Assembly: GCA_001938485.1 (NCBI GenBank)
Contig: MQRK01236233.1
Coordinates: 15,977-79,426, forward strand
Origin: Girardia tigrina
Lineage: Eukaryota
Length of the DNA stretch: 63,450 nt
Direction of reading: 5' to 3'
This document shows positions 22,260 to 51,800 of the stretch, piece after piece. Position numbers and translations under genes: made by a program. Numbering within the stretch: the stretch's first letter is position 1; every line of letters begins with the position of its first letter. The notes under the pieces were generated by a model. The model ran no database searches and had not been told where the DNA came from. It saw nothing but the letters and a program-made list of their open reading frames with translations.

Positions 22260-23503
22260 CTAGGTTGGAGAAAAAGTAATCCATTATTTTAATTCATTGT
22301 TTATCGATCAAACAATTTCAAATTTATGCTCTTTGTCAAGGTAACATTTCACAGTAATTTCACAAAAAAATTTTTGCTTTTTTTATTCAGTTCTGAGTTA
22401 CAGGGTGTTAAAAATGGAAGTCAACAAAAGAAAAAATTCGATACATTTTACAGTTTTTATTCGATAAAGGTGAAAATGCAAGCCAGGCGACTGTTATTGT
22501 GAATGTTGTTTATGGTGCCAATACTGTAACAGCTAATTACACGCAATTTTGGTTTCGTCGATTCCGTGGAGGTATTTTTAAAGATGCACCTCGCACAGGC
22601 AGGCCTATCGTTGAAAATGTCAATAAAATCTCGGCAATGATTGAAGTTGACCGGCATGTTAGTAGTCGTAGCATCGCACAGGAGCTGAAGAACGACCACA
22701 AAACGGTTTTAAACCATTTGGGCAAAGCAGAATTCAAAAAGAAACTTGATGTGTGGGATCCACACCAATTAACACCAAAAAACATGATGGATCGAATTTC
22801 CATTTGCGAAGCCTTGGCCAAACGAAATGAAATCGACCCATTTATTAAACGGATGGTTACTGGGGATGAGAAATGGGTCACATACGACAATATTGTACGA
22901 AAACGATCGTGGTCAAAGCACGGTGAAGCACCTCAAACGGTCGCCAAACCAGGACTAACGGCCAGGAAGGTTCTATTGTATATTTGGTGGGACTGGAAAG
23001 GAATCATTTATCATGAGTAGCTTCCGTATGGTCAAACACTAAATTCAGATCTGTACTGTCAACAACTGGACCGTTTTAAGATAGCAATTGATGAGAAACG
23101 ACCAGAATTGGCCAACAGAAGAGGTGTTGTGTTCCATCACGACAACGCCAGACCACATACGCCTGTAGTGACTCGCCAGAAACTCAGGGAGCTTGGTTGG
23201 GACGTTTTAATGCATCCACCATATAGTCCGGACCTGGCAACAAGCGATTACCACCTTTTTCTAGCATTGCAAAATTTCCTGAGTGATAAGAAATTGGGAT
23301 CAATAGAAGATTGTGAAAATCGATTACTACAGTTTTTCGCCAATAAGGATCAAGACTTCTACGAGAGAGGCATTATGAAACTACCTTCAAAATGGCAACT
23401 AATTATACAACAAAACGGTGCATATTTGACTCCAATCCGAGACATGTTAAATAAAGTTTTGAATTTTACGCCGAAACGATGGATTTCTTTTTCCCCAACC
23501 TAA
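22260..23503 (+). mobile_element. Near full-length mariner (mellifera-subfamily-like), one frameshift and one stop
   Basis: TIRs (c)taggttggagaaaaagtaatccat / atggatttctttttccccaacctaa flanked by TA. WFRRFR, TGDEKWV, HDNARPH and HPPYSPDLATSDY motifs. TAG at 23018-20. Confidence 0.95.
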
Positions 23504-23979: not shown

Positions 23980-24748
23980 GTAAATATTAATATTATTGTT
24001 GTCAGTTATTTATTTATTTTTGACATGTTGTCTTATGAAATGATTAACTTCATGAGATAGACAAAATCATTTATGATAATTTGAAATCTACATACGCAAA
24101 TAGAATAGATTTAATTTCCAGATTTTAAATCGAGTAAAGTTATTTATATCTAGGATTAATTGATGTGAAATTCAGAAAATTAAATTAAAAGGGTGAGTTT
24201 CATAAGATTTCAACATATAAATTATTTTTTTTCATTTACTTTGTCATAAATTGATTTTGGACACAAACTGGTTGTATTATTACATTTTCAGTGTGATGAA
24301 ATATAAATTAAGTACTACTAATAAAGTTGAAAATTTGTTTATAAAAATGATGTTTATACTTAAAAACCGTATCATATTTTTCAACAAATGTTGCTTGATT
24401 CTAATGAACGATTGCAAACTAAATATGCAGTTCTTTGATTATGTTGAAGAGTATTTTAAATATTATAACTTAAAGGAAAATACATCTAGTACAGTGTTGT
24501 GCTTCGGTGGAACTGTAAAATTACAAATTCAACAAAACATTAATAATTAAATTAATTACTAAAATAAAAGTATTAACTTGTTTAAATAAAATGTTGAATG
24601 TAACTTTTTGCCATGTGTGAATGTGTCAGCCAACTGCGTAAAAATATAAATTGCTCAATCATTGTGCATTTCGATTTCTGCTTCACAATTTATCATATGA
24701 ATATGGAAAATATACATCCACGATCTTTCGTCATAACCGGTTGTCATT

Positions 24749-25713
24749 GGAAGATTCAAATTAATGAATCAATTAATTATAAATATTTGTATGTATAAAA
24801 ATTTCAGTTTTTGTCATTATCTGACATTTTCTTTTGAAATTAGATAAATCATAAAAAGTTAAAACTTATTATTGAATAAATTCTAAATTTTTCTCAAAAA
24901 ACTATTTATATATTGAAAAAATTGCAGTATTCTTTTACTGCATCAATTGTAATTATTTGTAATTGAAATAATAATAAAATTTTTAAAAGGTGAATTGAGT
25001 TTTGGTTTTTGCATTGAATTTGAAATCGAAAATTTGAAAACAAAATTTAAAAATGGTTAACTATTTTGGTAGCAGATCGTGTTTGGACTTAAAATGGGAA
25101 TCGTCAGCAATTGATTTTGGATGATCGATCGAGAGTATCACCGATCAATTCCTCGTCCGGCGACTATGCGGAGGATTTGGTGAATTGTTCTTTCCTTAGT
25201 CGTGGTCTGGGAAGTAAGTCATGTTTTGGTGCTGGAGATCGGCTGTCGATGTTGCTCAAGGAGTGTGGCCGCAATATTTGAACATACGGAGAGGAAAATA
25301 ATCGATTTGAAATGGGAGAAATTAAATTAAAATTTGTGGATTCAGTTAATGGAAATGATCCTTTTGAATGTCATTTGCAATTGGATTATGACGATTGCGT
25401 CGCAAGGCTAGTTAAATTGACCGAATCACTAGGAATTCTTTCTGAAAAACTAAATTCGATTTTTTTGAAAGTGAGAAAGATATTCGTGAGATTTGTTAAA
25501 AAGGCGATATTAAAGATGATTTTAAAGAGTTGGAAAATTGTGAAACTCTTGATACTCTTGATGGATTGAGAACATACCTCTGTGAATTTTCCATGGAATC
25601 TCAATTTGAAAACGATTATTATAAAACTGGAATGGAGTGTAGAAAAGAACTTAATCAAATATCCAATGATTCAAACCAACTGAAATCAAAAATTACGAAT
25701 CTAAACGACTTTA
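24749..25713 (+). mobile_element. Truncated copy of the Ubl-Gag BEL/Pao element (5' region, PBS, leader, N-terminal ORF)
   Basis: Inverted homology to 50843-51799, with a shared MGEIKLKFVDSVN ORF. Confidence 0.85.
25067..25084 (+). promoter_or_regulatory. Primer-binding site complementary to initiator tRNA-Met
   Basis: TGGTAGCAGATCGTG is complementary to the ...TCTGCTACCA 3' end of eukaryotic tRNAi-Met. The same sequence occurs at 51465-51479 (-). Confidence 0.65.
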
Positions 25714-49311: not shown

Positions 49312-51800
49312 TTACCGTTTTCTTTTCTTCTTCCATGTCAAACTTGTCCAACATGGTGCTCTTTTAATTTCTTTTTCCGATCCAGCTGGTTTTCCTTTTT
49401 CTTTTTGAAAGAAGGATTTTTCTTTATAAAGTTCTCTAATATTCAGATTTCGCTGTTTGGATTTGAATGTGCTGATACCATGAACGACTTCCGCAACTGT
49501 CCTCTTTATTTCCACCTCATTTATTAACCAATCCTTTAAAACTGATAATTTTTGAGGTTTTCCTTCAGAAAGGCGAGTTCTCTCCCAACGCTCGACTAGA
49601 ACTTCGGGTAATTTTGCCGTCAAGGTGATGCATAATAATCCTCGTTCAATCTCAACTTCCTTGTTATTATTCTCTGATCTAGAAATAATAGCTTCCATCA
49701 ATACTACAAAGCATTCTAGGTCCTTTAAATTATTTGACCTCACTGGAAAGAACTCATTTATTTCTCTCATTAAATTGGCGTATTGCCTCTGAGCACCTCC
49801 ATATCGTTTGTCCAATTTGGCCAATATCGTTTTATAGGATTCTTTAGTTATGTCGATATTTTTGATCAATGTCTTTGGTTCGCCAATAAGGCATTGATCC
49901 AACATTATTTGCTTCGAAATATCTGACATCTTTGAGGAGTCGACACATGCCTCGAAAGTTCGCTTCCATTTTTCATACTCACCCACATCTCCAGAAAATA
50001 TGGGTAAGGTTACCAGTTGGAATTTTATGGGAATTCTATCTTCCACCACCTGCACTCGTTCCTTTTCTTTGATCAGTTTATGATTGATGTTGAATCTCTG
50101 CTTTGCAGCTGCTAGCACCTCTTCGTTTTGATCTTCTAATTTTTTCAACTCCTTGTCGATTATTGAGCTATACTCTTTTTTTCTTTAACCGTTTGGCATT
50201 AATTGCCATTGATTCGAAATCCTTCAGCCCTTCAATATAGCATTCGTTGTACGAAACCATCGTTCTATTGAGTTTTCAGTTGATATTTCCGCATGTCCGA
50301 GCTTGCCGAACTTCTTCGGCATAGCATTTTTCTATCTAATTTATCTTCATCCATTTCTATGCCTCCTTTCAGGGCAAACAGAAGATGAAGTGTAGCATTC
50401 TTAGCTATATCACTCTCCTTTCTTTTTTTTTGATCTTCTAAGAGTAATTGTTGTAAGCTGACTGGAATTTTTCCCTTGTTTTCAATTTTTGCTTTGATGT
50501 GTTTTATCGTTTCTCGATTCTTCACATCCGAGGCAATTGTTTTGCCAGAAAGCGTTTTTATGAATATCAGCAATTCTGTGTCTTTTCCTTCAAACTTTTC
50601 TTATCATCCTCATCTTCCGGCAAATCGAGATCTTCGCTGCCAACTACATCCTTCACAAAATTCAAATATTCTGAAAAGAGATTCTCACAACTGCTCTCGA
50701 GAATTGCACTATTACATTCCTTTTGTTGTTCTATAGCATCTTCTAAACTCGTCAGCTTAAATCCGGTCAGCTGGTGGGAGTGTGTGATATTTGTATTCAT
50801 TATTTGATTACTTATTTCGGATATTAAACTCGTAATATTTGTTAAAGTCGTTTAGACTCGTAATTTTTGATTTCAGTTGACTTGAATCATTGGATATTTG
50901 ATTAAGTTCTTTTCTACACTCAATTCAAGTTTTATAATAATCGTTTTCAAATAGAGATTCCATGGAAAATTCACAGAGTTATGTTTTCAATCCATTAAGA
51001 GTATCACAATTTTCCAGCTCTTTAAAATCGTCTTGTATATAGCCTTTTTAACAAATCTCACGAATATTTCTTTCACTTTCAAAAAAATCGAATTTATTTT
51101 TTCAGAAGGAATTCCTATTAGTTCGGTCAATTTAACTAGCCTTGCGACGCAATCGTTATAATCCAATTGAAAATCACATTCAAAATGATCAGTTCTGTTT
51201 ACGGAATCCACAAATTTTAATTTAATTTCTCCCATTTCAAATTGATTATTTTCCTCTCCGTCTGTTCAAACATTGCGGCCACTCTCCCTGAGCAACATCG
51301 ACAGCCGATCACCAGTGCCAAAACATGATTTACTTCCCAGACCACGACTAAGGAAAGAACAATTCACCAAATCCTCCGCATAGTCGCCGGACGAGGAATT
51401 GATCGGTGATACTCTCGATCGATCATCCAAAATCAATTGCTGACGATTCCCATTTAAGTTCAATCACGATCTGCTACCAAAATAATTAGCCATTTTTAAA
51501 TTTTGTTTTCAAATTTTCGATTTCGAATTCAATGCAAAACCCAAAACTCAATTCACCTTTTAAAAAATTTTATTATTATTTCCAATTACAAATTATTACA
51601 ATTGTTGCAGTTCAACAAACTGCAATTTAATCAATTTATTTTTTTTTACAAATTTCAAATATTTAATCAAAAAAACTAATTTTAATTTGTGACAAAACAA
51701 ATCAATTAGTGAAAATTAAAAAGAGTTCGAAGTAAATAAACAAAAATAATTATACACACAAATGTTTATACTTAATTGATTCATTAATTTGAATCTTCCC
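49312..51800 (-). mobile_element. BEL/Pao LTR retrotransposon 5' part: leader, novel N-terminal domain, ubiquitin-like domain, DUF1759 Gag (frameshifted, truncated)
   Basis: LPIFSGDVGEYEKWKRTFEACVD...LDKRYG is DUF1759. Collinear upstream ORFs at 50265-50573, 50567-50800 and 50987-51235. PBS at 51465-51479. Confidence 0.85.
50361..50573 (-). pseudogene. Ubiquitin/NEDD8-like domain embedded in the retrotransposon ORF
   Basis: LIFIKTLSGKTI...ETIKHIKAKIENKGKIP...ATLHLLFALKGG aligns end to end with ubiquitin, with a roughly 5-aa internal deletion. Confidence 0.9.

Follow-up and report, generated by a model that had tools for sequence, protein, structure and literature searches.

A broken BEL/Pao fragment in the window

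The window analysed here is a 63,450-nt stretch of Girardia tigrina contig MQRK01236233.1, and its minus strand holds a fragment of a BEL/Pao retrotransposon in which a ubiquitin-like domain (Ubl) ending in Gly-Gly precedes Gag. The fragment opens with a 5' LTR of about 316 bp (51483..51800), delimited by blastn to the full-length copy C250909, and a primer-binding site (PBS) of the TGGTAGCAGA(G/T)CG type (51462..51479), complementary to the 3' end of what we take to be the initiator-Met tRNA. In family A, to which the fragment belongs, an ATG falls within the final 11 bases of the LTR, and its frame continues through the PBS (51493-51462 in the window, minus strand). The ORF pieces that follow encode a helical N-terminal leader, broken here by frameshifts (50700..51493), a linker made of two joined pieces of host Hsp90 (50585..50698; Pfam HSP90, E 0.002), a ubiquitin-derived Ubl ending in LKGG (50361..50573; Pfam ubiquitin, E 8.5e-12, with identity and an AF2 model of the L011 copy in agreement), and Gag (49348..50360), all on the minus strand. 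Gag comprises N-terminal helices, DUF1759 (E 4.6e-14 on the ORF piece 50184-49312) and the start of a first CCCH finger. The sequence-only reading of this DNA had described four collinear minus-strand ORF pieces with the Ubl and its Gly-Gly before Gag, and this layout was confirmed; leader, linker, Ubl and Gag are in differing frames. The acidic linker of that reading is also present, but as a two-piece segment derived from Hsp90.

The Ubl (50573-50361, minus strand) ends LHLLFALKGG and is followed by IEMDEDKLDRK. It had been thought to read without a stop into Gag. This holds for the copies L003 (533 aa) and L020 (341 aa), in which Pfam ubiquitin and DUF1759 lie in one stop-free frame across the Gly-Gly, but in the window copy the frame enters Gag by just 17 residues before a deletion near 50306 shifts it to a stop at 50265. 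The window Ubl has also lost five codons in frame (71 aa versus 76 aa in other copies), which explains why its identity to ubiquitin had been put at about 40% by eye; intact copies show about 50%. Likeness to C250909 ends at 49348 by blastn. At this point the truncated BEL Gag abuts a decayed Ty3/Gypsy pol (49347-44987, minus strand; protease, RT, RNase H, integrase), in which Pfam detects RT_RNaseH, Integrase_H2C2 and rve and no Peptidase_A17, and which has no DNA match to family A; a second integrase fragment lies within it (45517-44987, minus strand). The window copy is a dead, broken 5' fragment. A second, shorter family A copy (24748..25711, plus strand) has the LTR, PBS and leader and stops before the Hsp90 linker and Ubl. 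The plus strand also bears a transposase remnant with one stop (22412-23503), presumably Mariner-like from its motifs.

Family A and its wider clade

In the genome (G000, 1.43 Gb), one search returned 392 candidate family A loci and a second 403, and the best 40 of each were scored. The 7111-bp natural copy C250909 has 316-bp LTRs that are 95.6% identical to each other, a PBS, a polypurine tract and a 5-bp target-site duplication with one mismatch; the family A LTR ends TG...TA, not TG...CA. At L201 the 3' half of a tRNA with a CAT anticodon matches the PBS, and no whole initiator tRNA gene was found in the three loci scanned of 13 matching places. Family A copies carry DUF1759, two CCCH fingers, protease, RT, Peptidase_A17 and DUF5641, and the order protease-RT-RNase H-integrase with Peptidase_A17 and DUF5641 was seen in L213, L045, L047, L033 and L049. 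This domain set, together with the LTRs, places family A in BEL/Pao. Nearly all of the best 120 of 522 RT relatives found outside the genome carry PF05380, and the RT groups with BEL/Pao; the initial assignment to this group is borne out by LTRs, DUF1759, Pol domains and RT relatives alike. The fusion is a family feature, as had been supposed: other copies carry the Ubl inside the ORF bounded by LTR and PBS. An independent ubiquitin retrocopy was rejected, given the number of candidate loci and the same in-frame Gag junction in many copies.

To examine selection, 33 family A copies were compared after five duplicate assemblies had been dropped. None of the copies sampled is open from end to end, and the 33 diverge by 2.7-7% from the commonest codon of each column. 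The Gly-Gly, whose conservation had been named as a check, is retained in 27 copies and lost in six; such loss is expected from decay after insertion and equally compatible with a relaxed need, and the two are not distinguishable. The residue that follows is Met in 27/33. Variants private to one copy look neutral (pN/pS 0.8-1.05). Among shared variants, DUF1759 is clearly constrained (pN/pS 0.30, p 6e-5 versus neutral), and the proposed selection check on the Ubl gave a borderline, suggestive value (pN/pS 0.52, p 0.06 versus neutral; p 0.18 for single versus shared variants); the Gag N-terminus (0.60, p 0.09) and the first 115 codons (0.77, p 0.45) gave higher ratios. A stop is the commonest codon in no column, and variants common to at least three copies include two stops in 117 nonsynonymous changes. 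Family A contigs are present in four sequencing runs. In X4, the sole run on record as RNA, a contig spans the Gly-Gly junction by 65 and 187 bases, although it may derive from DNA. In the leader, an in-frame block of about 45 codons (element positions 618-752) separates two subfamilies, and the window copies are of the short form.

The architecture extends well beyond family A. A ubiquitin profile search of the genome returned 3445 candidates (best 150 scored), many in long frames, and a DUF1759 search returned 1330 (best 150 listed). Twelve of the ubiquitin candidates were examined, followed by 82 DUF1759 loci from the 150 listed. By HMM, 57 of these 82 have a Ubl within 1 kb upstream, in a list that is skewed to high-scoring families and contains some duplicate assemblies. 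The Ubl-GG sits 120-164 codons before DUF1759. About ten families were separated by eye, with Gag identities of 30-40% between most of them, and their junctions read LGLKGG|M, LRLCGG|S, LRLRGG|S (three groups), LRLQGG|M, LRLNGG|M-type, LRIRGG|M and GKLLGG|M. In families A, C, C2, D, F and G and in one copy of family E, the PBS motif was seen upstream of the Ubl. In L082 an Hsp90 piece, ubiquitin, DUF1759, CCCH, protease and RT share a single 1178-aa frame, N gaps included. Among the 25 Ubl-negative loci, 18 match Ubl-bearing loci at 89% identity or more and are copies with truncations, gaps or rearrangements; five are unassigned. In the other two, L181 has just the last 12 ubiquitin residues left before Gag, and L165 has a decayed tail in which the Ubl is unrecognisable and ends LRIREG. 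No clear case of an intact Gag start without a Ubl-type tail was seen among the sampled loci.

Records outside the genome gave a similar picture. Pfam ubiquitin is in frame with Gag and Pol in P0156, P0177 and P0202 (full length) and in P0230 (partial), whereas P0169 and P0210 keep the LxGG tail. P0230 is essentially family D; the other outside Ubl records are distinct. A further independent record, P0154, has the order RPB10 piece, Hsp90 piece, ubiquitin, DUF1759. Seventy-two outside BEL proteins carry Gag and extend far enough before DUF1759 for the junction to be judged; six have [LI]xGG there and 66 do not. In an RT-RNase H tree of 43 rows drawn from 128 (family G has no RT, and the L082 row was trimmed), one branch sets all 14 Ubl rows, together with two records whose Gag start is missing, apart from the 27 others, with support of 91/88 (not starred); the trees contain neither a non-BEL outgroup nor the named references Sinbad, Pao, BEL, Tas, Suzu, Dan and Flow. 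All six outside LxGG proteins fall on the same side as the genome's families. A single origin of the Ubl-Gag fusion is compatible with this tree and not rejected by it. The families are not independent tests, since they share ancestry and recombine. Judged from the sequences, Ubl-GG before Gag is a clade-wide architecture and not the oddity of one family. The early suggestion of long residence in the element is also supported. Protein searches were dominated by polyubiquitin-like proteins, and none of the 150 matches listed covers the Gag part; an Atlas search returned DUF1759 clusters alone, with scores below 0.9.

The Gag fingers vary within this clade. Two CCCH fingers replace the BEL triple Cys-His box in families A and B, and CCCH is also found in C and C2 (observed in L013, L015 and L017 of A; L082, L089, L091 and L148 of B; L119, L122, L136 and L137 of C; L184 of C2). 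The CCHC form is retained in families D, E, F and H and in the outside Ubl proteins, and the CCCH pattern occurs in none of the 120 listed outside proteins within the first 900 aa. The triple Cys-His (CCHC) box is described as a feature of BEL/Pao Gag in the main text of PMC554778, in which Tas already lacks it. Families A, B, C and C2 lack it too, and because Tas does so CCCH is a variant trait and not a ground for excluding them from BEL/Pao. In four derivatives of family B (L083, L084, L086 and L092; open frames of 456-915 aa), a long repetitive coiled coil replaces Gag after the N-terminal helices and DUF1759 is absent; these are possibly non-autonomous or decoy elements.

Origins of the Ubl and of the leader

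Compared with host proteins, an intact family A Ubl shows 50% identity to ubiquitin, against 40.5% to NEDD8 (L196) and 24% to FUBI. All 50 listed Foldseek matches and all 60 listed PDB sequence matches are ubiquitin, its variants or its fusions. An AF2 model of the L011 Ubl, built from an alignment that included host ubiquitin and NEDD8, has a pLDDT of 91.6 and a TM score of 0.95 to ubiquitin. The domain had been read as NEDD8-like from Ala72, which is indeed present in the window copy but private to it (G in 28, D in two, C in two and A in one of the 33 copies). A NEDD8-type cassette cut by a deneddylase might also draw on a weak Ulp1/SENP-family likeness in leader residues 22-86 of P0202 (Pfam E 0.009, below the cut-off). 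Against the rarity of Ala72, the identities and the uniformly ubiquitin-type matches, this explanation is most improbable, and we rejected a NEDD8 origin. Descent from FUBI-eS30 was rejected as well; for family G the FUBI search gave no hit, compared with 36% identity to ubiquitin. The median difference between host ubiquitin units is already 46% of synonymous sites, which confounds dN/dS computed between elements and host genes.

Family A keeps L73-x-G75-G76 and the lysines K63, K6, K11, K27, K29 and K33, and mostly has Q42, W44, L48, G72 and K74 (I44W in 28/33, K48L in 32/33). In ubiquitin the arginines R42, R72 and R74 are read by E1. With these replacements the Ile44 patch, the K48 chain site and the E1-read arginines are gone, and family A thereby lacks the residues R42, R72, R74, I44 and K48 of conjugatable ubiquitin. 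A released family A Ubl would likely be unconjugatable (R42Q, R72G, K48L). Families B and C keep near-canonical ubiquitin surfaces. These surfaces bear on the idea that the Ubl stays attached, helping with folding or solubility or offering a handle for interaction with ESCRT, the proteasome or ubiquitin-binding proteins. The modelled fold, the surfaces of B and C and the lysines retained in family A would suit such a role. However, the ESCRT or proteasome handle first suggested for family A sits badly with I44W, K48L and R42Q; the Ile44 patch and K48 vary between families and the Gly-Gly does not; and no env gene was seen in the 7.1-kb element. Linear Ub-GG-X fusions with a canonical tail, such as that of family C, are moreover cut by host deubiquitinases. 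We consider a permanently attached Ubl unlikely.

The leader upstream of the Ubl contains pieces of host mRNAs. The family A linker corresponds to host Hsp90 residues ~369-380 joined to 533-549, and in L003, L011 and L012 it is about 80% identical in nucleotides to host Hsp90 L123. Families A, B, D and E all have Hsp90 pieces (from aa 343-549, with varying ends) before the Ubl, and family C shows a trace; the PBS motif, where found, lies upstream of these pieces. The family B leader also has an RPB10 piece; a PBS was searched for in this family and not found. A remnant of a preceding ubiquitin unit is present in family C and P0177. The helical leader of family A has no Pfam or PDB match, and a single-sequence AF2 model of the 451-aa L012 frame reached a pLDDT of 38. 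An Atlas lead (0.86, 137 shared features) pointed to formin FH2 as the source of this leader; it was not confirmed, as tblastn against 30 host FH2 loci gave no match. Separately, the FH2 fragments L235, L238-L244, L247, L252 and L253 all begin at one profile position (~167), which points to a further repeat bearing part of a host gene. An intronless, internally deleted PRMT1-like piece is in open frame with Ub-Gag in L087 (3345-5750, minus strand); it lies upstream of the PBS and was left out of the cassette. The N-terminal leader of P0156 looks DnaJ-like and has no Pfam match.

The Ubls of several families are mosaics. In their first quarters, the B and C Ubls agree with individual units of one host polyubiquitin gene at 51-56 of 57 nt. 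Between B and C, quarter 1 comes from different units (40/57) and quarter 3 is shared (55/57), and their Gags are only about 35% identical despite these near-host quarters. The P0177 Ubl has a canonical first half and a diverged second half. The ubiquitin of families B and C has its closest source in a three-unit polyubiquitin gene that ends GG-CGTESGW and is identical on four contigs (L054, L055, L056 and L058). We infer that the mosaics may reflect repeated template switching at ubiquitin homology. It could then be argued that ubiquitin matters at the RNA level only, as a recombination hub or small-RNA camouflage, and that Gag uses its own Met; the near-host quarters beside distant Gags, the quarter shared by B and C and the lack of a selection signal in the first 115 codons of family A agree with this. 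On the other hand, the old Ubls (A, G and P0156; 32-50% identity) have lost their DNA likeness to the host and kept frame, core and Gly-Gly, stops are not dominant at any family A codon and are rare among shared variants, and several Gags have no Met near their start. A purely RNA-level role is quite improbable.

A predicted cut after Gly-Gly and its known counterparts

We propose that leader, Ubl-LxGG and Gag-Pol form one frame and are translated together as one chain, and that a host deubiquitinase cleaves behind the Gly-Gly, which would release Gag(-Pol) with a defined Met or Ser N-terminus. We give this reading a probability of roughly 0.7; the host-protease cleavage cassette, raised when the locus was first read, stands as the leading model. 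Among 13 lineage representatives (32-96% identical to host ubiquitin), G75 and G76 match in 12 each and L73 in 11; the core residues I13, K27, L50 and T66 match in all 13, compared with four for R74 and eight for I44. The beta-grasp fold, the exposed C-terminal di-Gly and a P1' residue other than Pro, as expected of a processing cassette, are present in the sequences and the AF2 model. Nearly every family has Met or Ser at P1', residues typical of natural N-termini; P0169 has Gln, and Pro was never seen. The first Met after the Gly-Gly is at residue 83 in L087, 62 in P0156 and 50 in P0169, so in these three, translation must pass through the Ubl to make the N-terminal helix of Gag. Where Met follows the Gly-Gly, Gag could start at that Met without the Ubl. 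In the Ubl-less outgroup P0243, Gag starts 148 residues before DUF1759, at about the Gly-Gly position of the clade.

A cut at or near the junction might instead be made by the element's own aspartic protease, since the elements encode a protease with an LLLDDAS motif. What is kept at the junction, however, is a fold plus LxGG, the signature of DUB/ULP substrates, and proteases of the retroviral type prefer hydrophobic P1/P1' residues. This alternative is very unlikely. Cleavage by a host deubiquitinase has precedents: passages of PMC8354635 describe human FUBI-eS30 as cut by USP36 with a need for the Gly-Gly, and passages of PMC8310069 describe pestivirus Ub-NS3 as cut by cellular hydrolases. 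The host FUBI-eS30 junction SLKGG|K resembles GLKGG|M of family A. According to parts of PMC10611586, USP36 contacts R72 and R74 and most deubiquitinases do not process Fubi-like tails. In family A, R72, I44 and R42 are gone and K stands in place of R74, so its tail may be cut poorly.

Under the deubiquitinase model, the cut would render anything upstream of the Gly-Gly harmless, and template switching could then add fragments of abundant mRNAs (Hsp90, RPB10, polyubiquitin) to the leader. The cleavage site, if it is real, may thus make the ORF tolerant of captured host sequence. A wider scenario is tentative: an ancient BEL/Pao clade may have outsourced N-terminal processing of Gag to host deubiquitinases, the Gly-Gly cut turning the 5' end of gag into a capture slot, with ubiquitin as the site of crossover both to host polyubiquitin mRNA and from one family to another, and with pieces of those host mRNAs swapped in, perhaps for translation signals or shelter from small RNAs. 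The gain to the element may be improved expression, help with folding or concealment from small RNAs. If the cut is real, this lineage of retrotransposons would have a capsid maturation dependent on the host ubiquitin system, and its activity would be tied to the state of deubiquitinases and proteostasis. The natural series of junctions, with 32-96% identity to ubiquitin and many tails, offers a test of what deubiquitinases need. The thousands of ubiquitin-like matches in this genome arise because the clade carries the cassette, and they are a trap for gene annotation.

The elements share with BEL/Pao (Belpaoviridae) the LTRs, the DUF1759 Gag, the order protease-RT-RNase H (Peptidase_A17)-integrase-DUF5641 and Gag and Pol in one frame, and their nearest named RT relatives come from molluscs and other aquatic invertebrates. 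They differ in the Ubl-GG before Gag, the host-mRNA leader and the CCCH fingers of A, B, C and C2. Our full-text literature search gave no report of ubiquitin fused to a BEL Gag, and the word 'ubiquitin' is absent from the main text of PMC3118150 and PMC554778; Repbase, Dfam and GyDB may hold the architecture. The nearest retrotransposon case is the planarian giant Gypsy Burro/GYPSM1, whose LTR polyprotein includes a Ubi2/SUMO-like motif and other host domains, as stated in section 7 of PMC6431247. That element is Gypsy and not BEL, its motif lies after Gag between MATH and BCL-2, and this section describes no processing role for a Gly-Gly.

In host Ub-eL40, Ub-eS31 and FUBI-eS30, too, a Ubl-GG is fused to an assembly protein that binds RNA. 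Family A has a tail like that of host FUBI (LKGG), although the family A sequence is not derived from FUBI, and in these host genes the Ubl stands at the very N-terminus, whereas here it is internal and follows a leader. In cytopathic pestiviruses (BVDV), ubiquitin or a Ubl is inserted before NS3, often with pieces of neighbouring mRNAs, and host hydrolases generate the authentic N-terminus, as described in parts of PMC8310069 and PMC13517609. Unlike those sporadic RNA-virus recombinants, the cassette here is fixed across a deep clade at 32-96% identity and precedes a structural protein; cleavage is known there and predicted here. If the cut is real, the BEL/Pao clade would represent a heritable, long-fixed counterpart of the pestivirus insertions.
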